From a virus: 25,452 bases of DNA. The notes under the pieces were generated by a model. That model saw nothing but the letters and a program-made list of their open reading frames with translations, ran no database searches and was not told the origin of the DNA. Below are positions 1,420 through 25,452 of the stretch, one piece after another. How positions within the stretch are numbered: the stretch's first letter is position 1; each line of letters starts with the position of its first letter. Both the position numbers and the translations under genes were made by a program. The DNA lies in the IMG/VR virus record IMGVR_UViG_3300010271_000013. One strand, written 5' to 3'.

Positions 1420-4400
1420 TCATATCCTCCTCATGAGGCTTGTGCCACCTTTAAGGTACATCTGGGTTTGCAGTCCATTGTTCACTGTTTCAAGTATACT
1501 CTCCCCTATAGTGCGTCCTACTTCCCTGGCAGTTTCTTTATCCTCAACTCCGTTAATGTTCTCTATCCTGACCTCATTCTTCACAGTCATTTGGGGTGTG
1601 CTCTCCGCTGGGGGTGTGCCCTCAAGGCGGCTGGGGAGTGTGAAGCCCCCGAATAAGAGGCCTGATGAGTCTTTCAGTCCCGCGTTGAAGCTACCCCCGA
1701 GACTGTACCCGTACCCGTACATCACTTCATCCGTCAAGTCCTTGAGGGGGCCCTCCCTTGGCGGTGATCTTGGGAGGTATTTTCTGATGATCGCGAGGGC
1801 TTTCTGCAGTCCAGGGATCTGTGATAGTATACCCTGTGTGAGGTTCCGGATGAATGACGCCCCCCACTCCCTGAACTTGGAGGCTATGCCACTGAAATTA
1901 GGGAGAGGTAGGCGTGGCCACTTGAATCCTGAGAATGAAGACTTCACCTTGGAGGTGAATGTGGACCACGCCCTCCTGAATGCCCCGAGGATATCAGGCA
2001 TGGATACGTTGGGGAGTCTGGGCCACCTGAACCTGGGGATATTGGATGACACCCATGACCTGAATTTGGCCCAAGCGGATTGGATAGCTCCGACTATGTT
2101 GGGTATTGTGATGTTAGGTAGGCGTGGCCACCTGAATCGGGGTATATTGGATGATACCCATGACGTGAATTTGGCCCAAGCGGATTGGATAGCAGTCACA
2201 GGGTTAGGTATGCTGAGGCTGGGAAGTCTTGGCCATTTGAAAGTGGGAATATGTTCCTTAACCCATCCTGTGAATTTGTTCCACATCTCCTGCAGAGCCG
2301 TTACAGGATTAGGAAGAGGAAGTTTAGGTAGTTGTGGCCATTTAAATGTTGGTATGCGGGTCATGACCCACACTTTGAAGTCATTCCATACTTGCCCAAA
2401 GCCTTCGATGATGTACTTTCCGGGGTCCCTAAATAATTTTGAAAGTTCCTCACGGATAGGATCCTCAATGTAGGTCTTGATATTCTGCATCAGCGCTTCC
2501 TTTAGTTTGCTCCACTTTTCAGGGCCATAGATCCCCTCAAAAAGTTTTTCAGGGGAAAACATGTTTTTAATGGAATCAGGAAGTAATGAAAGAGGTGTCG
2601 GCCCGAATAAGGATGTTGGATCAGAGAGTGCTCTGTTTAGGTATTCCCTAAAGTTTGCGAGTATATCTACACTTAAAAGAGCGACACCAACTCCTTCACC
2701 GATACCCCTTATAAGCAAGGATCCTATACGGGAACCTAACTCTGGGATACTAACCCTTGCAGCGTCATCAACACTCCCTGTAAATCTCTCTAGGAGGGTC
2801 CTTGCAGCGTCATCAATCTGAGTATCCCCTATAGTTAAATCTATTTTGGGGAGTTTGAATTTGAATTCTGCAGGGATCTCAATTTTAGGTGTTAAACGGC
2901 CTGTCTCATCACCAAGGATCCTCTTAATCGTGTCAATAAACCCCTTAATGATATCCTTTGCTTTGCCCGCCGCCTTATCAAATCCTTCAGATAATGTATC
3001 TATGAGGCGGCGTGACAGTTCCTCAGGCAACCTTCCCTTCAATTCATCGAATCCGTCGGACAATAGCCTCCTGATAGCCCCAGTGACACGTGGGATGAGT
3101 CTCTTTAAGCCTTCGGCAAGGTACTCAGCGGCTTTTGCGAATACCCCAACAAGCAGTGATTCTCCGATTAGGCCCATGTCACCGAAAAAATCGTTCAACC
3201 ACATCGCGAACTGATCCAGATAGTACCTTATCCATCCTAATATATCCCTATGTTCTTTCGCTGATTTACCGAGCGCTTTGTTCATCCTCTCAGATTCCTC
3301 TTCAGTCACCTTACTCGTGGTTTTCCAGTTACTTGCCACCTGTGCCAGCGCTGGCCCCACTGATTCACCAAAAACCTCAGTGGCAACCCTAACACGTTCC
3401 TGCTGATCAGGAATCTGAGAAAGAACCTCTATAAAATCAAAAAGCACATCCTTGAATGGCCGCAGGTTTCCATGAGCGTCCCTCACAGCCACCCCAAATC
3501 CCTCGAGTTTATCACTGTACTTTTTTACGCTTTCCCCGCCTTCAACCCATGAACTTGATATCTCTGCTAGATCCCTAGCAAATGGCCTCAGAATCCGTGT
3601 GCCTATGGGGCCTACTGATGCAATTATCCTGGCTGTATCCTCCACATTCAAACCTGCTTGTTTGAAAAAATATCCAAGGCGATCAACGGTATCAATGAAC
3701 TGTGTGAATGATGGGTAACCTGAGACCCTCCATAACCCAAGGAGCAGGTTCACTGTATCTGTTGAGTCTTGTACACTGACATTGAAGTCCCTAAAGACCC
3801 TTGCAAGTGCAAGTGTCACTGTGGATGCATCCTCACCACTCCTTTTAACCCCAAGGAGGGCTGCTTTAAAGTATCCCATAGTCAGGTTCACATCATTGGT
3901 GTAGGCTGCAAGTGTGTACATCACTGACGCTGTTCCCTTCATCCCTAGTGAGTAGACATAGTTTTCACGGATTAGATCCTCCATGGCTTCTCTCTGACTT
4001 TGAGTTGCATTTGTGAGGATTGCTGACTGCTCAATTATCTTATTATAATTCAAGAGCTCAAGTGTTTTATTATATGAGAAGAATCCCGCCGTTAAGCCAG
4101 CGACTTTTGAGGTTAAACCATCAACAGCTCCGGTGAATGTGTTTGTTGTCTCAGCAGCTGTTTCCATTGATTCTGTATCCACCGTGATCGTAGTGTCATA
4201 TGTTGTCCCATCAATCTCCTCAAGTTTTTCTTTGAAGTTTTCAATGTTTTCCTCGTTAACATCCGCGTTCAGTGTAGTTGTGACCTCATCAGGGATATCA
4301 CCTAGAAGTCCCTGTAGTCTCTCAACTATTTCTGTAGCGTTGTCATCAACATTTAATGAGATATCCACAGTGGATGGGAGCTCACTAAGAAGTTCTTTCA

Positions 4401-4800
4401 GGTTTGTGATTGGTTCTGTAGCGTTATCATCAACATTCAATGTTATGTTAAATTCATCAGAGAGTCTCTCCTTCAAAGAATCAAGCACATCAGATGCATT
4501 ATCCTCCGCGGTGAGGGTTACATTCACTTCTGATGGTAAACCATCCACAAGGTCCTTAATATTTGTGATGGTCTCTGTGGCAAAGTCATCGAATGCAGAA
4601 ATTGTGATTTCAACATCTGAGGGTAAAGTTTCAAGAGAATCCTGGATTGTCTCAAGTATTGGGGTGACAGTATCCTCTGTGGTGATATCTACTTCGACTG
4701 ATCCTGGCAGGTTGGACAGTGCATTGTTTAAATCGTTTAAACCGTTCACCACTTCCTCGGCATCCATTCTGACTTGCACGGCAAGTTCATGATCAGTCAT
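1420..4800 (-). CDS. tail tape measure protein (1126 aa)
   Basis: Longest ORF in the window, in the tail module. Five C-terminal 35-aa repeats with W/F at fixed spacing ([87 protein letters not shown] and others) and N-terminal ~28-aa repeats, as is typical of tape measure proteins. GGAGG Shine-Dalgarno-like motif about 9 nt upstream of the ATG on the minus strand. Confidence 0.75.
1830..2370. repeat. In-frame ~105-bp tandem repeats (5 copies) inside the tape measure gene; coordinates approximate
   Basis: Near-identical DNA blocks around 2020..2090 and 2125..2195 (GGCCACCTGAA...CCCATGAC.TGAATTTGGCCCAAGCGGATTGGATAGC), matching the 35-aa protein repeats. Confidence 0.7.
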
Positions 4801-4843
4801 CCATCAACTCCTCCTGGAGAGAAAACATTTATTTTTATGTCAA

Positions 4844-5557
4844 GTGAAAAATAGTATTGGGGTGTTTGTGTTGAAGCTTCAATGTAAAGAATGCGGCAGG
4901 GAGTACACATTACAGGATGATGAAGACCCCATGGATTACACATGCGAATGCGGGGGGAACCTAGAGAAAGACGAAGATCTAAGTGTATTAAAAGGCAGCA
5001 TATACCTTGCATTTATGTGGTTAGCGGCAGCTACAAATGGGGGTATCCAGGGGTTAGGGCTTCTTCTAATAGAATTGATATTATTCATTTTGCCAGCTAT
5101 AATCATATCAGCCATAATTCTCCGCGAAAAAAACCCTAAAGAATTACTTGGCATTGAGGGCATCCTATTCATCATATTAGGCATAATCGTCATCCATGAC
5201 CCTAAAAGCCTGATCTATGGTGCCTTCGGTATATTAGGATTACTAGCAGGGGTGGTCCTAACCATTGAAGGAGTGCTTGGCACTATTAAAGGAGATTCTG
5301 ATAAAGAAGGGCCCAGGGAAGTAGAAGGAGGTTTCCATGTCCTCCACGCAACAGCTATCCTCCTAGGAAGTTACATTGCATTACTTCTGATCAACCCCAC
5401 TGCAAGTGAAAGTGAGGGTATCATGGCCCTCACTATCATGTTCCTAGTTCCAATCCTCACTGCACTAAGCATAATCTACAGGAAAGATAACCCTAAACCT
5501 CTTAGATCAGTCCAATTAATAACCGCTATGATCATCTTATTCGTCCTCATCATTTAA
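4844..5557 (+). CDS. multi-pass membrane protein with N-terminal CxxC...CxC zinc-ribbon-like motif (237 aa); true start may be an internal GTG or TTG
   Basis: Only long ORF in the 4801..5536 gap and on the opposite strand to its neighbours. N-terminus CKECGREYT...YTCECGG, followed by about six hydrophobic helix-length segments separated by charged loops. Overlapping minus-strand ORFs translate to low-complexity sequence. Confidence 0.5.
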
Positions 5558-6276
5558 AGAATAATTTATCCTTTTGAGGGCCTCTAGTTTTTTCTCAATC
5601 TCCTCCTTGGAGGGTTTCACCCTGGGGGGTTCCATATGAGCCAGGTGATATTCTATGAATACACTGTACTCAAGTTCAAGTATCTCCCTTAAGCTCCACC
5701 CTGTCTTCATGCTGAGCTGGTAGATCCCCCTTTTGAGGGAGATCCACTCCTCCTCCGGGTTCCACTCTTTTTTTCAGTATTTTCAGTACCCCTAGGGTCT
5801 AGTTCATCAGTGGATACCCCTATGATATCAGGGTTCCCAAGTTCTAACATGATATTCACGATCTCTGTGACCATGTATGGGGCTAATTCTACGTCGGGTA
5901 GACTGTCAATGTACTCTGTTAGGGTCCCCTGAGCTTCCGCTTCCTTGTATTCTTTAGTGTCCCTGTACAGGGCCCTCTTCAAGCCTCTCTGCGCTAAGGG
6001 GTAACTTATCCTGCTGACCTCCACTGTGAGTTTATCTATCCTATCCTTTAGTTCTTTAATTTTCTTCGCATCATCCTCTGAGACGCCCTCCCCACTCTCT
6101 AGCCTCCCGATGAATTCCTGGTAGGCTGTTGCTATCTCCAATGCCTCATTCCTTTTTTCGATGAGGGGGATCACATATTCACTGTCAACAACCCTGTACC
6201 CTTCGAGTTCTACTTCGGTACCGTCCAGTTTAACCTTTTTCCTCCTCAGAAAAGAGAAACGTTTGGGGGTGGTCAA
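5537..6276 (-). CDS. predicted G-T chaperone fusion made by programmed -1 ribosomal frameshift (about 247 aa)
   Basis: After the heptamer at 5767..5775 the -1 frame stays open for 76 codons ([76 protein letters not shown]) to TAA at 5537..5539. Frameshifting itself is an inference. Confidence 0.35.
5707..6276 (-). CDS. putative tail assembly chaperone, G-like (189 aa)
   Basis: Sits between the putative major tail protein gene and the tape measure gene; acidic product; carries a canonical -1 slippery heptamer 18 codons before its stop. Confidence 0.45.
   Translation of the reverse strand: MTTPKRFSFLRRKKVKLDGTEVELEGYRVVDSEYVIPLIEKRNEALEIATAYQEFIGRLESGEGVSEDDAKKIKELKDRIDKLTVEVSRISYPLAQRGLKRALYRDTKEYKEAEAQGTLTEYIDSLPDVELAPYMVTEIVNIMLELGNPDIIGVSTDELDPRGTENTEKKSGTRRRSGSPSKGGSTSSA
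5767..5775 (-). other. canonical -1 frameshift slippery heptamer A_AAA_AAG in the zero frame of the chaperone gene
   Basis: Minus strand reads GAA AAA AAG in the zero frame of the 5707..6276 ORF (plus strand CTTTTTTTC). Frame verified by counting codons back from the stop at 5707..5709. Confidence 0.45.
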
Positions 6277-6287
6277 AGCGGGTCACC

Positions 6288-7022
6288 TTAAACTTTTGGT
6301 ATTACTAGTGTTGGTGTGTCTGAAACGGTCATCTCAAGGGTGAATGACAGGTTATCCCCGGCTTTCCCTCCGGGTATGTCAGGTTTCAGTTTCACATTTT
6401 CAAAGTAGAACCGTCCCAGTGTCTCCCCATCCACGTGGTATACGGTGTACCCGTATAGGTTGAGGGGTTTGTCACGGAGTTTATACTGCTCGGCCCCTGT
6501 GGTCTCACCCACCTTGTAGTACATTAGTTTTCTGAACTGCTCCAAACCATTCTTGGAGAGTATCTGCTCAGATTTTAGGGTGATTGTGGTGCCAGCGTAG
6601 CTTGTTATCTTCGCCGACTCATTTAATACGCTGACCTCCTTCGTGTCCTGCTTCACATCAGGGGTCACATCCTGGGCAAGGAATGGTTCCATCTCCTCCA
6701 CATATGATACTTTCACACTATCCCCTGTGTCTGGTGCTGATGCGAGACTGAAACCCTCAGCATAGCCTTCAGATTCATTGAATAGGATTGTTGAGACTGT
6801 TGCTGCTTCCCCATCAACTGTTACTGTGACATCTTCTGGTTTCACTGTCAGGTCATTACAGCTCCTGGGGAATATCGGCGGATTATTCACATAAAAATCC
6901 TTATTCGTCCCGTCTATATCCCCTATTGGGGTTTCCTCCTGCACAGGTATCCCAAGGAAGAACCCAACATTCTCCCCTGTCAGTATAGTTTCTGCTAGTT
7001 TATCCACAATCATATCCATCAC
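6288..7022 (-). CDS. putative major tail protein (244 aa)
   Basis: Position immediately upstream of the chaperone gene in the conserved siphovirus order; size appropriate. No motif recognised. Confidence 0.35.
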   Translation of the reverse strand: MMDMIVDKLAETILTGENVGFFLGIPVQEETPIGDIDGTNKDFYVNNPPIFPRSCNDLTVKPEDVTVTVDGEAATVSTILFNESEGYAEGFSLASAPDTGDSVKVSYVEEMEPFLAQDVTPDVKQDTKEVSVLNESAKITSYAGTTITLKSEQILSKNGLEQFRKLMYYKVGETTGAEQYKLRDKPLNLYGYTVYHVDGETLGRFYFENVKLKPDIPGGKAGDNLSFTLEMTVSDTPTLVIPKV

Positions 7023-13423: not shown

Positions 13424-14822
13424 GCCTCCTCCTCCTTCTGAGGGGTCCTGAGATGTAAATCTTCTTCTTTCTCCTCATCTCCATTGATAATATGTTAAAA
13501 GCACCACTGAACGCATCGACCTGATCGTCATGGACACCCTCCATGGGGAAGGCCTCCAATTCATCAAGGAATGCCCTTGTCCAGGAAGCTCTGAGGACTT
13601 TGATGCGCCCTGATTCCGCATAACTTGAAACGGGAAGGGCGCGTGTCACCTTATCCCCAGTCACGCGGTCAGCCCTGAATGTGTAGCCTTGGAGTAGGCT
13701 TCTAAGGTAATCAGTGACTATCTTACCTGAGGATCCTGGCTCCTCCTCCTTAGCGATGATCACTTCACGCCCATCCTCCTCAGCAGTCCTCAGGACCTTC
13801 GATTTAACCTTTCCAGGGGATTCTCTGAACCGCCGGACATCAAGAACATAATAGTAATCCTCCTTATCCACTCCCAGAAGCAAACCAACTGTATAGTCAG
13901 GGTCATTGGCCCCGTCAGGTTTAGTTGCTGCGAAATCCCAGTACCTGACGCTCATCACAAGACCATTTGGGGGTGAATCAATGACCTCAAACCATTCCCT
14001 CTTGAAAACTCCACCCTGCAGTGTAACATCCCAGTCCCCATCTTTCAACTGCCTACGGGTTACATGGTCAAGCATATTCAGGGCCTCTTCATATTCATCC
14101 CGGTTAAGATAAGGGTTTTCCCTCCATGTTGAGGGGATGAATGTCTTTTCACCTGTAATGAAGCGGGTTTTAACCCATTCATGCCCAATACCTCCAGGGT
14201 TACTGGTGGCCCTGACGCGTAGAGGTATGTGATCATTCACTTCCTTACGGAGTGATCGGAACATGAAACGATACTGGGTCTCCATGAACTCTGTGAGTTC
14301 ATCGAATGCGATATAATGATATGATGATCCCTGGTATCTGTAGCGGTCCTTTTCATGTTCCATATGCCCAAACTGCAATGCAGCGCCGGAGGGGAATGTC
14401 CACCGTTTTTTCTGTTCATTCCACTCTGCATCCGTCCCCCCAAGCCAGTCATTTGCCATGTCTATAAGGCCTCCTTCCTGGCTGAGCTCAGGATAGGTTC
14501 GGCGCAGGATTAGGGCGGCGTAATCAGAGTAATGCACATACTGCAGGGCCCCCATAAGTAAAGCCACTGATTTACCGCCACCTGCAGCACCACCATACAG
14601 GACTTCACGTTCATCTGACAATAGAAACTTAATCTGTTTATGGAAGGGGTTCACAGGGATATATGGGTTCAATATTATCGTCGAATAGAACAGCTTCAAT
14701 TCCCTGTCAGAGAGGCCCTGGAGGATGCTTCGAATATTCTCTGATTCTTTCAGTTTCTTTTTCCAGTCAGCCACCTTCACCTTCAGCCTCTTCATCATCC
14801 AGGCCTTCATCCATACCCTCAT
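13416..14822 (-). CDS. terL: terminase large subunit (468 aa); true start may be one of the internal Met codons
   Basis: Walker A-like GGAAGGGKS in VLYGGAAGGGKSVALL, Walker B-like IAFDELTEF, and a C-terminal acidic nuclease-like segment (VHDDQVDAF). Upstream of the portal gene. Confidence 0.8.
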   Translation of the reverse strand: MRVWMKAWMMKRLKVKVADWKKKLKESENIRSILQGLSDRELKLFYSTIILNPYIPVNPFHKQIKFLLSDEREVLYGGAAGGGKSVALLMGALQYVHYSDYAALILRRTYPELSQEGGLIDMANDWLGGTDAEWNEQKKRWTFPSGAALQFGHMEHEKDRYRYQGSSYHYIAFDELTEFMETQYRFMFRSLRKEVNDHIPLRVRATSNPGGIGHEWVKTRFITGEKTFIPSTWRENPYLNRDEYEEALNMLDHVTRRQLKDGDWDVTLQGGVFKREWFEVIDSPPNGLVMSVRYWDFAATKPDGANDPDYTVGLLLGVDKEDYYYVLDVRRFRESPGKVKSKVLRTAEEDGREVIIAKEEEPGSSGKIVTDYLRSLLQGYTFRADRVTGDKVTRALPVSSYAESGRIKVLRASWTRAFLDELEAFPMEGVHDDQVDAFSGAFNILSMEMRRKKKIYISGPLRRRRRHV

Positions 14823-15328: not shown

Positions 15329-15601
15329 TTATATTGTGCGTATGAGTGTGATGATTATGGGGATGATCAGGGCTGTTAGGAGTATCATGGTGATTTTGTG
15401 GTAGGCTTTGAGGGTTGCTATTTCTGCTTGGAGGTCTATTAGCATTTTATTGGTATCCTTGATGTCGATGATGTCGTATTCAACGTTTTTCAGTCTCTCC
15501 TCGAGGCTTGTTATCCTCTCTTTTTGTATGCATCCATGTCCCTCTTTTGTCATGTTGTTTCTCCTGGGCGGGCTATGTATCCTGCGATGGCCCCGATACA
15601 T
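15329..15601 (-). CDS. small C-terminally membrane-anchored protein; probable real start at ATG 15551..15553 (74 aa)
   Basis: Internal ATG overlaps the upstream gene's TGA in an ATGA arrangement. Predicted coiled coil followed by a hydrophobic C-terminus (ITMILLTALIIPIIITLI). Confidence 0.4.
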   Translation of the reverse strand: MYRGHRRIHSPPRRNNMTKEGHGCIQKERITSLEERLKNVEYDIIDIKDTNKMLIDLQAEIATLKAYHKITMILLTALIIPIIITLIRTI

Positions 15602-19708: not shown

Positions 19709-20191
19709 TTATTCCACCTCCATTTCTCCGTAAATTATTGACCTGTAGAGTGCATTGTAGTCCTTGATTGTCTCATCATCCTCTGAGGTGATTATGTCAA
19801 GGTAGGCGAGGTAAACAATGTCTTCATCGATGATTACGTCCCCCTCTCCCTGGTGTTCCCTGAGTGCTCTGATCCATGCGAGGCTGCCTGCTGAGTGTAG
19901 AAGATCAGCTGCGAGATGTTCAAGTATTTTTCTGAATTCACGGATTGCTTCGCTGGTTAAATGGGCCTTGTTAGGGTTTCTGATACCCATGAAGTTGTCA
20001 TGTACTTGGTCTTCAAGGGCTTCTACGGGTGTTAGTATTTTCACCCGGATGCCGTCATGGTCCAGGTAGTCCTGGTATGTTTCTTCTATCTCTTCGGGGT
20101 AGCCCTTTTCAAGGGCTTCCTTGTACTTTCTCCAGGCTTCAAGCCTACTACCAAGAACAATATCTCGTGTTTTCATCTTACCACCACACAT
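19709..20191 (-). CDS. hypothetical protein (160 aa); start may be the internal ATG at 20174..20176
   Basis: First gene of the long minus-strand regulatory operon. Its start region lies inside one copy of the 24-bp direct repeat. Confidence 0.45.
   Translation of the reverse strand: MCGGKMKTRDIVLGSRLEAWRKYKEALEKGYPEEIEETYQDYLDHDGIRVKILTPVEALEDQVHDNFMGIRNPNKAHLTSEAIREFRKILEHLAADLLHSAGSLAWIRALREHQGEGDVIIDEDIVYLAYLDIITSEDDETIKDYNALYRSIIYGEMEVE
20167..20190. repeat. 24-bp direct repeat, copy 1 (GTGTTTTCATCTTACCACCACACA)
   Basis: Exact match to 20496..20519. Confidence 0.9.
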
Positions 20192-20290
20192 AATTTTATA
20201 GATAATATAGTATATATATTTTTTGGTATATTGGTGTAGTGGTTAAATATTATAAATATTTTTAAGCTATGCTCCGAAAAAATAGAAACC

Positions 20291-20464
20291 ATGAAAAGTG
20301 AAAAGGTCAACACAAGTGTCAATATCGATGCAAAAAAGTTCAAACTCTTCAAAGTCATCGCAATGCTAAAATTCGAGAAAACGCCAATTACCTCCGCATG
20401 GGAAGAAGCTATTGATTTGTTTATCGAAAAAAATAAAGAATATCTTGACGAAATTAAAGAATAG
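20291..20464 (+). CDS. small ribbon-helix-helix-like protein (57 aa), below the ORF-track size cut-off
   Basis: Read by hand: MKSEKVNTSVNIDAKKFKLFKVIAMLKFEKTPITSAWEEAIDLFIEKNKEYLDEIKE. Lies in a markedly AT-rich segment flanked by the 24-bp repeats, on the opposite strand to its neighbours. Confidence 0.4.
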   Translation: MKSEKVNTSVNIDAKKFKLFKVIAMLKFEKTPITSAWEEAIDLFIEKNKEYLDEIKE

Positions 20465-20495
20465 AGCAGTGAAACTCTTTCTTCTGCCCCCCTCG

Positions 20496-20519
20496 GTGTT
20501 TTCATCTTACCACCACACA
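20496..20519. repeat. 24-bp direct repeat, copy 2 (GTGTTTTCATCTTACCACCACACA)
   Basis: Exact match to 20167..20190. Confidence 0.9.
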
Positions 20520-20570
20520 CTAAAGGGGGGCACCTATATATAACACTACCATTAATACCTATCACATAGC

Positions 20571-22161: not shown

Positions 22162-23043
22162 TTAATCTGATGTGATCACACCCCAACCAATGTGCTGGAA
22201 CCCTGCTGTGCAACATGGCACCCCCAGGGGCCTCCCCGTCTTCGTAGCGGAGACATAATCCCATATCGTCCCATCCTTGAGCTCAAACCCGCCAACTCTC
22301 AGGAGGTAGTGGCCGTACCATTTCCCGTCGTTACACTTCACCCGAACATGTTCGATTTTCACCTCGTAGCCCATCTCTTCGAGGACCTTGCTGAAGAGTT
22401 GGCAGGCGTCGGTGCAATTGATCCCCTCATCAGTCATCCTCCTCACCGCATCGTCATCACTATATTTGTCATTATAGTAGTATTTGTAGTTGCATTTTCT
22501 TGCGACCGCACCATACAGTGTCGTTGCATCCACGAAGTCCCCTATCTTCTTCAGGACTCTCTTTGTCCACTCACCCTCCAGTCGCGGTCTCTCTATGTAT
22601 ACCACCTGGGGTTCCCTTCCATACCTGTCCTTGAAATTGTTGTATCGTCTCACCATGTCCCTGAATGTTTCGAGTGGGATGGATTCCCCTCCCCCTGAGC
22701 GGATGAATATGACGCGGGGTTCCCTCTTGTTCTTCATTTTGAAGTCCTCATACCTCTTCAACATGTCCTTGAACGTTTCGAGGGGTACTGATTCCCCTCC
22801 CCCTGAGCGGATGAATATGACGCGGGGTTCCCTCTTGTTCTTCATTTTGAAGTCCTCATATCTCTTGCACATGTCTTTGAAGGTTTCTAACGATACGCTT
22901 GGGCCCCCACCTGAGTAGATGAACACTACCCTGGGTTCTCTCCCATTAACCTCCTTGAAGCGGTTGTACCTGCTTAACATGTCTTTAAATTGGGTTATGG
23001 ATACATACTCTGGAGTGTTCTTATTAATCATGTCCACCTCCAA
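22162..23043 (-). CDS. pei: pseudomurein endoisopeptidase-like lysin (293 aa): tandem wall-binding repeats plus Cys/His/Asp peptidase domain
   Basis: Three near-identical ~36-aa repeats (EPRVVFIYSGGGPSVSLETFKDMCKRYEDFKMKNKR, EPRVIFIRSGGGESVPLETFKDMLKRYEDFKMKNKR, EPRVIFIRSGGGESIPLETFRDMVRRYNNFKDRYGR). C-terminal domain has candidate triad Cys in INCTDACQLF, His in GHYLLRV, Asp in DGTIWD, the order used by transglutaminase-like Pei enzymes. Confidence 0.6.
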   Translation of the reverse strand: MEVDMINKNTPEYVSITQFKDMLSRYNRFKEVNGREPRVVFIYSGGGPSVSLETFKDMCKRYEDFKMKNKREPRVIFIRSGGGESVPLETFKDMLKRYEDFKMKNKREPRVIFIRSGGGESIPLETFRDMVRRYNNFKDRYGREPQVVYIERPRLEGEWTKRVLKKIGDFVDATTLYGAVARKCNYKYYYNDKYSDDDAVRRMTDEGINCTDACQLFSKVLEEMGYEVKIEHVRVKCNDGKWYGHYLLRVGGFELKDGTIWDYVSATKTGRPLGVPCCTAGFQHIGWGVITSD

Positions 23044-23691: not shown

Positions 23692-25035
23692 TCACACCCC
23701 CTTCACAGGTTTCCCATAATTACCATAGAGTTGGCTGTAGACTGAGACAAGGACTGTACTGGTCCTTTCATTCACATCTGAGACTGTATGGATACTGCTC
23801 AGTTTCTGTTGTGACTCTATCATGTTCAGGACCGTCTCGGCGAGGTTCTTGTTCGATTCAACATCAGGGTTGTCACTAAAATCAACCCTAGTCCTGCGGC
23901 CGCCATTATCCCCCTCCCATGACACGTTCGTCACAGTGAACACCTTATCTCCTGTCTCATAGGGGAACCTTATGGATTCCCCTGGATGGAATGTTTGCAA
24001 GCCTGGCACCTCAAAACTCCCGGTTGTAATGGGGTCCTTGGTCTTCCTCAGGGCTTCCTCCAGTTTCCTCATGAGCTCATTTATACATTCCTTCATCCAT
24101 TCTTCTTCTCTTGGCTGATCTGAATACAGTCCTCCGCGGGGGCCGCCCCAACGGTACAGCCATGCCATGAAGTCCTCAGGACTCCCTTTATGTCCATGAT
24201 TCAACCAGTCCAAGTAGACCATGTACCCATGCATGTAATTCATCATATCCGCGTATCTTTTCACTTCACTAGGGGAGGGTGGTGTCTCCTCTTTATCATT
24301 TTCAGTGGGGGGTGGGTTGCAGGTGACGGTGATCCTCTCCCCAACCCTGAGACCATACTTTTCTATGCTTGCAGCATCACTCACCGAACGTGTGACTTCA
24401 CCATTGGGTCCTGTAGCACCCTCATAGTAGTTGTACACCCCTTCACTTGACTCCCTGATCTCAATGTTAATCATGTTCTCCACGGGCAGGTCGGTCACAT
24501 CCCCCTTACTGAACACTCTGAAAGTACCATATGGGTCTATATACCACCCCACATTCGCATCCTGATCATTCGCAACAGTGAAGAGCGTGTTAAGTGCTTC
24601 TACCTTACTCCTGAATTCCCCTCCATAAAAATAAGGGTCAAGGGCATTATTAGAGAACTGCACCTGGGGTATGCTCTCTGATGCGCCTATAATTATCTTG
24701 GTGTCCCTCAGGATGTTCTCAATGATCTCCCTCATGGGGAACACTCTACCCCCGCGGAGAACAGCACCAAATGCAAAGGGTTGTCTGGATAGGAGGAATG
24801 CATCATTATATCCGCCAATTGTGTATTGAAGACCATTTGCTGAGCGTGTCATGGTCACCGTCTCAGCGCGGCCAGTGAACACTTCATTATCCCTAACGAG
24901 GAACTGGATCTTATCCCCTGTCTTAAATTCTTTTTTCTCTCGTGGCCTTATTGTGACAGTGAATGATGTAGCTGCATCGTTCAGTCTTTGCTGGATATTG
25001 AAACTCACAAGTCCCTTTTCAGGCATATTCCACAT
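23692..25035 (-). CDS. putative tail-associated / baseplate protein (447 aa)
   Basis: Large ORF continuing the tail module across the window junction; no motif recognised. Confidence 0.45.
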   Translation of the reverse strand: MWNMPEKGLVSFNIQQRLNDAATSFTVTIRPREKKEFKTGDKIQFLVRDNEVFTGRAETVTMTRSANGLQYTIGGYNDAFLLSRQPFAFGAVLRGGRVFPMREIIENILRDTKIIIGASESIPQVQFSNNALDPYFYGGEFRSKVEALNTLFTVANDQDANVGWYIDPYGTFRVFSKGDVTDLPVENMINIEIRESSEGVYNYYEGATGPNGEVTRSVSDAASIEKYGLRVGERITVTCNPPPTENDKEETPPSPSEVKRYADMMNYMHGYMVYLDWLNHGHKGSPEDFMAWLYRWGGPRGGLYSDQPREEEWMKECINELMRKLEEALRKTKDPITTGSFEVPGLQTFHPGESIRFPYETGDKVFTVTNVSWEGDNGGRRTRVDFSDNPDVESNKNLAETVLNMIESQQKLSSIHTVSDVNERTSTVLVSVYSQLYGNYGKPVKGV

Positions 25036-25452
25036 CCCTGATTTTTACCTTGAGTTCACCATCATCCCTAATATCTTGAATGATCTCGCCTTCAAGGGTG
25101 AGATCATATTCAACCATCTCCCCTGTGTCAACCCGCACGTAGCAGGGGATGTATCTCATGGATGTGCTCTCATCAACCATCACCCCTACCCTGATGGGGA
25201 GTGTTGTGTGTAGGGATTTCCGTTCAGGACGCCTAACTTTTAGCGTGCAGGGGAGGGTTGCTTCCCTAAATCCTGTTATACCTACTCTGCAGGGGAGGGT
25301 TGCTTCCCTAAATCCTGTTATACCTACTCTGCAGGGGAGGGTTGCATAACCAGTTTGCTCCTGAGACCCAAATACTTCCACCTTGCAGGGGAGGGTTGCA
25401 TAACCAGTTTGCTCCTGAGACCCAAATACTTCCACCTTGCAGGGGAGGGTTG
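25019..25452 (-). CDS. repeat-containing small protein whose 5' part is encoded by the tandem array; on a closed circle it would start at ATG 143..145 (about 152 aa); could instead be a short ORF starting at ATG 25178..25180
   Basis: Minus-strand frame is open through every repeat unit (54 bp = 18 codons, 42 bp = 14 codons), giving ATLPCKVEVFGSQEQTGY and ATLPCRVGITGFRE repeats. The same frame crosses the junction to MEDVKMAD starting at 143..145, with a stop just upstream at 146..148. Confidence 0.3.
   Translation of the reverse strand, partial: TLPCKVEVFGSQEQTGYATLPCKVEVFGSQEQTGYATLPCRVGITGFREATLPCRVGITGFREATLPCTLKVRRPERKSLHTTLPIRVGVMVDESTSMRYIPCYVRVDTGEMVEYDLTLEGEIIQDIRDDGELKVKIRDVEYA
25247..25452. 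repeat. Composite tandem array: 2 x 42-bp units, then 2 x 54-bp units, then partial core; continues at 1..120
   Basis: Units at 25247..25288 and 25289..25330 (42 bp), 25331..25384 and 25385..25438 (54 bp), each starting with the core GCAGGGGAGGGTTG. Copies of each unit type are nucleotide-identical. Confidence 0.9.

Follow-up and report, generated by a model that had tools for sequence, protein, structure and literature searches.

We describe a membrane protein gene that runs against the direction of its neighbors in the tail module of a virus genome, IMG/VR record IMGVR_UViG_3300010271_000013; the whole stretch of 25,452 nucleotides that was analyzed is called the window below. The gene occupies positions 4871 to 5557 of the plus strand, between a tail chaperone gene and the tape measure gene, and codes for a 228-residue protein with an N-terminal zinc ribbon. 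It is almost certainly a real, independently oriented gene. It is of a known kind, an independently oriented membrane protein gene in a tail module, and the added value lies in a correction to the annotation of the virus psiM2.

Megablast and blastn searches identified the window as a relative of the Methanothermobacter viruses psiM2 and psiM100 (Leisingerviridae), with 98.9% identity to psiM2 over positions 4300 to 6400. The hosts of psiM-like viruses are heat-loving methane-producing archaea, and psiM2, placed in the family Leisingerviridae, order Methanobavirales, serves as the exemplar of its species (psiM2 record). All recognizable genes of the window, namely those for terminase, portal, protease, capsid, tail, tape measure, pseudomurein endoisopeptidase (Pei), and integrase, are carried by the minus strand. 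The membrane protein gene is the only one to run against this otherwise unidirectional genome; its position is conserved, and its sequence diverges fast. A single opposite-strand viral coding sequence (CDS), ORFE, is annotated in the psiM100 prophage record, and the psiM2 record places 32 of its 32 annotated CDS on one strand.

In a sequence-only reading of the region, the space between the chaperone and tape measure genes had been assigned to a membrane protein gene on the opposite strand, whose multi-pass product would carry a zinc-ribbon-like motif near its N terminus. Coding evidence, helix prediction, and the CxxC...CxC motif bear out the gene and its product, and the neighbors are as named, with a G/GT-type chaperone pair with a slippery heptamer on one side, a PF10145 tape measure gene on the other, and a gap of 736 bp from the stop of the chaperone to the start of the tape measure gene. 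The gene had also been described as convergently oriented, which applies to one side only. It is convergent with the chaperone, the 3′ ends overlapping by 21 nt, but divergent from the tape measure gene, the two starts lying 70 bp apart. Because of its opposite orientation, it lies outside the late operon transcript.

Coding evidence and the annotation of psiM2

The mechanical open reading frame (ORF) extends from a GTG at 4844 to 5557 and spans 237 codons. None of 2000 dinucleotide shuffles of positions 4801 to 5560 gave a stop-free run of at least 228 codons, the maximum being 162. Nevertheless, ORF length alone is weak evidence in this genome, because plus-strand ORFs of 361 codons (1388-2473) and 219 codons (4133-4792), taken as chance products of codon bias, lie antisense to the tape measure gene. 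The reality of the gene was therefore judged by comparison, from the ratio of nonsynonymous to synonymous substitution rates (dN/dS), in-frame indels, and divergent homologs.

The plus-strand frame is intact in six relatives, psiM2 and the metagenome contigs L003/L004, L008, L012, and L013. Relative to psiM2, two indels comprise whole codons in this frame, and five clustered substitutions all fall at synonymous third positions. Third codon positions hold 26 of the 53 variable sites. The summed pairwise dN/dS was 0.25 in the plus-strand frame, with no stops, compared with 0.49 in the antisense frame of psiM2 “ORF20,” with four stops across the region, and values above 1 in the other four frames. 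Judged on these comparisons, 4871-5557 is a functional gene under purifying selection. The JGI and Logan gene callers predict the plus-strand gene on all relatives.

In psiM2, GenBank and RefSeq annotate ORF20 on the main strand (NC_001902.1, 14304-14606), antisense inside complement 13931-14614, which codes for a membrane protein 97.8% identical to that of the window. Together with the occurrence of long chance antisense ORFs, this annotation might be taken to mean that the plus-strand ORF is there by chance and that the real gene is ORF20 on the structural strand, or that the region is noncoding. We consider this extremely improbable. Homologs with 24 to 40% identity keep the zinc ribbon and the helices on the plus strand in psiM100, in contig L018, and in a host genome, whereas library scans returned no family or homolog for ORF20, whose equivalent has an end that varies from 85 to 100 amino acids (aa) among relatives. 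The dN/dS of the ORF20 frame is as expected for an antisense frame that shares wobble positions. ORF20 was rejected as a real gene in view of its stops, its variable end, and its higher dN/dS, and, on this comparison, it is probably a wrong-strand call, an antisense artifact. The psiM2 reference record appears to have carried it since deposition; as a consequence of this probable error, the membrane protein is missing there and had no match in PHROGs. Another minus-strand candidate, the ORF at 4797-5012, might have been coupled to the tape measure gene through an ATGA overlap with its start; it is absent from L003, L004, and L012 and was rejected as well. A conserved minus-strand tail protein, which the sequence-only reading had named as one finding that would speak against the gene, was looked for, and none was found.

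We placed the start at TTG 4871, because the N-terminal extension from GTG 4844 is not conserved and the downstream start is; from this pattern, TTG 4871 is probably the true start. The stretch upstream of the L/V-K-x-x-C motif differs among relatives (MGVSH... versus VKNSIGVFV...), and the homologs all start with TTG, GTG, or ATG four codons before the first cysteine and 5 to 7 nt after GGGGTG or GAGGTGA. A GAAAA motif followed by an A/T box precedes all three allelic types of the gene (see below) as well as a cellular homolog, and this box, which resembles a B recognition element (BRE) and TATA box, would act as the promoter of the membrane gene. An independently transcribed accessory gene had been suggested before; the orientation, the BRE/TATA-like box, and the Shine-Dalgarno-like motif agree with independent transcription, but the conservation of the gene in its slot does not fit a sporadic accessory. 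Two T-runs past the stop codon are possible archaeal terminators, of which the T6 run is T4 in psiM2 and is thus not conserved. A scan for sigma-70 promoters and terminators, which is not applicable to archaea, gave nothing useful.

The GC content of the membrane gene is 42.4%, with 0.43 at third codon positions (GC3), versus 46 to 49% and 0.47 to 0.65 in seven other genes sampled. Its GC3 is the lowest among the genes sampled, the difference being modest, and the overall GC part of the difference may reflect the hydrophobic amino acid content.

Protein architecture and family

The zinc-ribbon domain is acidic, with 12 D/E versus 4 K/R in residues 1 to 37, and its cysteines C5, C8, C25, and C27 hardly vary in the family alignments. 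AlphaFold2 (AF2) gave short strands in this region. For the topology, a check that the sequence-only reading had suggested, AF2 secondary structure gave a multi-pass protein with seven predicted helices. The AF2 model was built from a 10-sequence alignment and has a low mean predicted local distance difference test (pLDDT) score, 50.6, which makes it unsuitable for fold searches; more homologs would not improve it, because further homologs share the zinc ribbon only. Kyte-Doolittle windows gave six strong segments and a weaker first segment. Loops rich in K/R lie on alternate sides, REKNPK and another basic loop being cytoplasmic if the N terminus is inside, and in this model an N-terminus-inside topology would fit the positive-inside rule.

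The membrane part consists of a four-helix core and a partly duplicated three-helix extension. A BLASTP comparison of its N-terminal and C-terminal halves detected a repeat (37% identity over 27 aa; E = 1e-5), in which a helix-RKxNPKxL motif recurs in the C-terminal helices, and this recurrence points to a partial internal duplication. The protein is by far the largest of the genome's membrane proteins.

An exhaustive phmmer search of 1.84 billion representatives yielded only 15 proteins at E ≤ 1e-3. P0005 (148 aa), which bridges the window protein and the ORFE-like form, is 38% identical to the window protein (E = 2e-17), and P0009, near-identical to ORFE of psiM100, matched residues 1 to 109 of the window protein with E = 2.2e-5; the pairwise BLASTP comparison with ORFE itself gave E = 2e-9. 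ORFE (NP_071829.1, 142 aa), annotated as “hypothetical protein, similar to MTH1518,” is encoded in the same slot, between ORF19 and ORF21, in the same orientation, and shares the CxxC...CxC zinc ribbon and a membrane core with an LP...(Y/L)(R/K)K..P loop. It consists of the four-helix core only, whereas the 228-aa window protein has three extra helices, and identity between the two is low outside the zinc ribbon. All traits of the ORFE-type family of Psimunavirus that were tested are present in the window protein: a zinc ribbon four residues after the start, significant similarity, the four-helix core, and the slot and orientation. A proline-containing helix 2 followed by a basic (R/K)(R/K)xxP loop characterizes the ORFE-type core, and the motif occurs twice in the window protein. 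By sequence similarity, the window protein is a homolog of psiM100 ORFE.

A homolog was found in the same slot and orientation in psiM2, in psiM100, and in all psiM-like metagenomic contigs fetched (L003-L018 and L021-L029, a set in which some contigs are duplicated and L026 is the psiM2 genome itself). P0005 and P0009 are also encoded in this slot and orientation on psiM-like contigs. The slot is always filled, by one of three forms of 228 to 236, 148, or 142 to 144 aa, which share 24 to 40% identity or the zinc ribbon only. The notion of an insert that relatives might lack did not survive this comparison, as every psiM-like relative found carries a homolog. Because the slot is filled in all relatives, we take the gene to be conserved and lineage specific, with fast divergence, and not a sporadic accessory. 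Of 50,697 phage records, those of psiM2 and psiM100 alone encode the protein, and all homologs found belong to Methanobacteriales or their viruses.

One homolog is cellular. P0019 of Methanothermobacter sp. K4 (146 aa) aligns with the N-terminal 60% of the window protein at 40% identity; it has the same zinc ribbon and four-helix core but no C-terminal three-helix extension. Its gene (JAKLTD010000003.1, 10001-10441) stands alone on its strand, with no viral genes within 10 kb, and is flanked by acyl-CoA (AMP-binding) ligase/ACT genes and a superoxide dismutase-peroxiredoxin-ferritin-rubredoxin cluster. The zinc ribbon is a module common to many Methanobacteriales membrane proteins with unrelated membrane domains. 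Proteins that share it fall in the precomputed Pfam families PF17647, PF14333, and PF18933, and a PF17647 member is named “DUF5518 domain-containing protein” in one source. For the window protein and ORFE, no family was found in Pfam, PHROGs, NCBIfam, or PADLOC. A PADLOC match of P0005 to DrmB (E = 8e-4 over 30 residues) was weak, corresponded to the zinc ribbon, and was disregarded. Sequence matches in the PDB were confined to insignificant zinc-finger hits (E ≥ 0.2), and two scans of GTDB species representatives brought up no confirmed relative, neither MTH1518 nor the M. wolfeii provirus being recovered there.

Possible functions and an exchangeable block

The protein is one of very few membrane proteins in psiM-like viruses, and it is a candidate both for the exclusion of competitors and for the membrane crossing of the Pei lysin. 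We tentatively place superinfection exclusion at the membrane-entry step first, as a possible rather than a probable role that rests on analogy. It was ranked first because HK97 gp15 is the closest known case, given the counter-orientation, own signals, membrane product, fast divergence in a fixed slot, and host homolog of the window gene. HK97 gp15 is the inner-membrane product of a moron located between the tail chaperone and tape measure genes and expressed apart from the late operon; it prevents genome entry in a manner dependent on the phage tail region, and it has host homologs outside prophages (YebO) with a similar N terminus and a diverged C terminus (PMC3594210). The window protein shares with it the membrane location, the slot between the chaperone and tape measure genes, a nonviral host homolog, and a diverging C-terminal part.

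An exclusion factor of this kind would be transcribed from a BRE/TATA-like promoter of its own and not with the late operon. Since the gene would be transcribed separately, it could be expressed while the late genes are silent, in the provirus or in early infection. The helices would insert into the host cytoplasmic membrane, with the zinc ribbon remaining cytoplasmic, and the protein would block the genome entry of superinfecting related viruses at the membrane crossing mediated by the incoming tail and tape measure protein. More speculatively, it might act as a variant or decoy of a family member in the host membrane. If it does serve exclusion, a gene for an exclusion membrane protein between the chaperone and tape measure genes would be common to bacterial and archaeal siphoviruses.

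The membrane gene travels in a block of approximately 1.6 kb, because identity between related genomes drops only within about 4680-6290. By sliding identity, the window and contig L023 are 96 to 100% identical outside this interval and 50 to 60% identical inside it, the membrane gene being unalignable, and L018 behaves alike. Gene by gene, identity to L023 is 99% for ORF17, 95% for ORF18 (major tail protein), 62% for ORF19, and 44% for the T extension of the chaperone; in the membrane protein, it is confined to the zinc ribbon. At least three allelic versions of the block occur on otherwise 95 to 100% identical backbones. Exclusion might thus be allele specific: each virus type would exclude its own type of tail at the cytoplasmic membrane, the three versions traveling with the chaperone and the N terminus of the tape measure protein, possibly through mimicry of a host zinc-ribbon membrane protein used by the incoming tape measure protein. 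The protein could be the first entry-blocking determinant of an archaeal tailed virus with allele-specific exclusion or, alternatively, a membrane-permeabilizing partner of Pei, a proposal that we put forward with considerable reserve.

The exchange of the chaperone G/T, the membrane gene, and the first ~40 tape measure codons as one unit, and the fixed position in all relatives, would also suit a helper at the membrane that serves tail assembly, or the virus's delivery of its own genome, and is functionally linked to the chaperone and tape measure genes. Such a role appears very improbable to us. The opposite strand makes coexpression with the late tail genes awkward, transcription being convergent or colliding, and siphovirus tail assembly is cytoplasmic and needs no membrane protein in the lambda and HK97 pathways. 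The inheritance of the block as a unit may be explained by linkage alone, because mosaicism is general in psiM-like genomes; L003 and L004, for instance, form a patchwork throughout.

Several observations weigh against superinfection exclusion. Scans with Pfam, PHROGs, NCBIfam, and PADLOC detected no similarity to gp15 or YebO, and, for lack of homology, the window protein lies outside the gp15 family. Unlike sporadic morons, the membrane gene occurs in all relatives, among them psiM2, a virulent laboratory phage; HK97 gp15 is absent from related phages. Absence from close relatives is part of the phage moron concept (in the Juhala/Hendrix sense), and in the window gene only the allele differs. 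Strict covariation of the allele type with the tape measure body was considered and rejected, as the ORFE type is paired in L023 with a tape measure that is window-like beyond about codon 40 and in L021 with a psiM100-like one. Exclusion proteins are not known to have a cytoplasmic zinc ribbon, and the ribbon hints at the binding of a cytoplasmic partner or nucleic acid. The cellular homolog was seen in one host lineage only. HK97 gp15 differs from the window protein in other ways too. It is a single-pass protein encoded on the same strand as the tail genes, and it belongs to a phage of bacteria; the host here is an archaeon that has a pseudomurein wall and lacks an outer membrane. In addition, gp15 is described as small, with no zinc ribbon among the features reported for it (PMC3594210), as opposed to the 228 aa and the zinc ribbon of the window protein.

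The acidic zinc ribbon is also compatible with a membrane-tethered regulator or sensor that would hold a host or viral protein, or nucleic acid, at the membrane. Such a protein could affect the lysogeny/lysis decision, late transcription, or host physiology, the last being lysogenic conversion other than exclusion. We find this unlikely, although the ribbon is the most conserved part of the protein, and its use as a module with variable membrane parts in Methanobacteriales suggests a common cytoplasmic binding function; the independent orientation and the cellular homolog P0019 fit as well. On the other hand, no helix-turn-helix or other regulatory domain was found in the protein, it has no known partner, and its gene shows no link to the integrase and early region, more than 10 kb away. 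By sequence analysis, a regulator is hard to tell from an exclusion factor.

Another role would be that of a holin-like or lysis-control membrane protein, which would build up in the membrane and let Pei reach the cell wall or time that step. The pei gene (22162-23043, minus strand) codes for a signal-less pseudomurein endoisopeptidase with four PMBR units and a Peptidase_C71 domain. How Pei crosses the membrane is unexplained, and no archaeal virus is known to encode a holin (PMC10791045). In favor of this role, the window protein is by far the largest membrane protein of the genome, next to only two small candidates with a hydrophobic segment, and is conserved in all relatives, including the lytic psiM2. 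Nonetheless, we rate this role as improbable. Holins, which are virus-encoded membrane proteins like the window protein, are small with a charged C-terminal tail (PMC10791045), as against 228 aa, seven helices, and a hydrophobic C terminus. The membrane gene is on the strand opposite to pei and all late genes and is not adjacent to pei, and its homolog stands alone among housekeeping genes in a host genome. The two small main-strand membrane proteins would be better placed. One (15329-15601; 90 aa, one C-terminal membrane helix) immediately precedes the small terminase gene, where psiM2 has ORF7; the other (20173-20565; 130 aa) lies beside the integrase gene. Apart from these two and the membrane gene, no ORF has a strong hydrophobic segment.

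Flanking tail genes and genome context

Table 1. Positions of the membrane protein gene, its signals, and its surroundings in the window
Feature	Position	Strand	Description
Zinc-ribbon membrane protein CDS	4871-5557	+	228 aa, TTG start, TAA stop; from ORF list, translation, and comparison
Candidate archaeal promoter	4820-4837	+	Purine-rich BRE-like AGAAAAC, then A/T box ATTTATTTTTA, ~40 nt upstream of the start codon
Shine-Dalgarno-like GGGGTG	4859-4864	+	6 nt upstream of TTG 4871; GGGGTG or GAGGTGA equally spaced in all homologs
Zinc-ribbon cysteine cluster	4883-4957	+	Residues 5-29, CKECG-x16-CECGG (C-x2-C-x16-C-x-C)
Seven predicted membrane helices	4982-5551	+	Residues 38-55, 64-84, 89-109, 114-142, 150-174, 180-206, 211-227; AF2 secondary structure
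Internal repeat, copy A	5075-5155	+	BLASTP, N-terminal versus C-terminal half of the membrane domain
Internal repeat, copy B	5435-5515	+	Aligns best with the helix 2 loop of psiM100 ORFE
T-runs past the stop codon	5572-5575 (T4), 5588-5593 (T6)	+	Possible archaeal terminators; inside the opposite-strand T ORF
Antisense ORF equivalent to psiM2 “ORF20” (NP_046975.1)	4936-5193	-	Judged a non-gene
Tape measure gene	1420-4800	-	PF10145 (PhageMin_Tail); psiM2 ORF21
57-codon ORF, probable T extension of the chaperone	5537-5710	-	100 to 44% identity in relatives; ATGA overlap with ORF19
Tail assembly chaperone G, ORF19-like	5707-6276	-	phrog_31377; between major tail protein and tape measure gene
Recombination block, ~1.6 kb	4680-6290	.	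Chaperone G/T, membrane gene, and first ~40 tape measure codons; breakpoint near 4680

The chaperone genes have the classical G/GT arrangement, which in tailed phages normally lies directly beside the tape measure gene. In the window, ORF19 contains a slippery heptamer, A_AAA_AAG, at 5767-5773, of the dnaX type and in the X_XXY_YYZ register, and no stop interrupts the -1 frame from there across the 57-codon ORF. A -1 frameshift at this site is predicted to yield a 246-aa G-T fusion. The heptamer is kept in L018 and L023, and psiM100 has a noncanonical G_AAA_AAG. The T part of the chaperone is unannotated in the psiM2 and psiM100 records.

The tape measure protein has 1126 aa in the window versus 1186 aa in psiM2 (3561-nt CDS), and this difference suggests variable tail length among the relatives. 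Tandem repeats of ~35 aa with an FKWPRLP motif (105-bp period) lie at 2010-2235. Between L003 and L004, the membrane gene is 100% identical (0 differences in 711 nt), and ORF19 and the distal tail genes differ (136, 625, and 249 aa versus 144, 270, 232, 355, 205, and 209 aa), a sign of pervasive module shuffling.

An Rfam scan of the whole window detected no RNA family. Bases 1 to 120 of the window are identical to the last 120, so that the genome is circularly closed at ~25.33 kb. These ends lie within a 54-bp tandem repeat of 2.3 copies at each end (1-123 and 25330-25452), which falls inside an ORF at 25019-25435 on the minus strand. The pseudomurein-binding repeats of Pei are encoded by 108-bp tandem repeats at 22650-22923.

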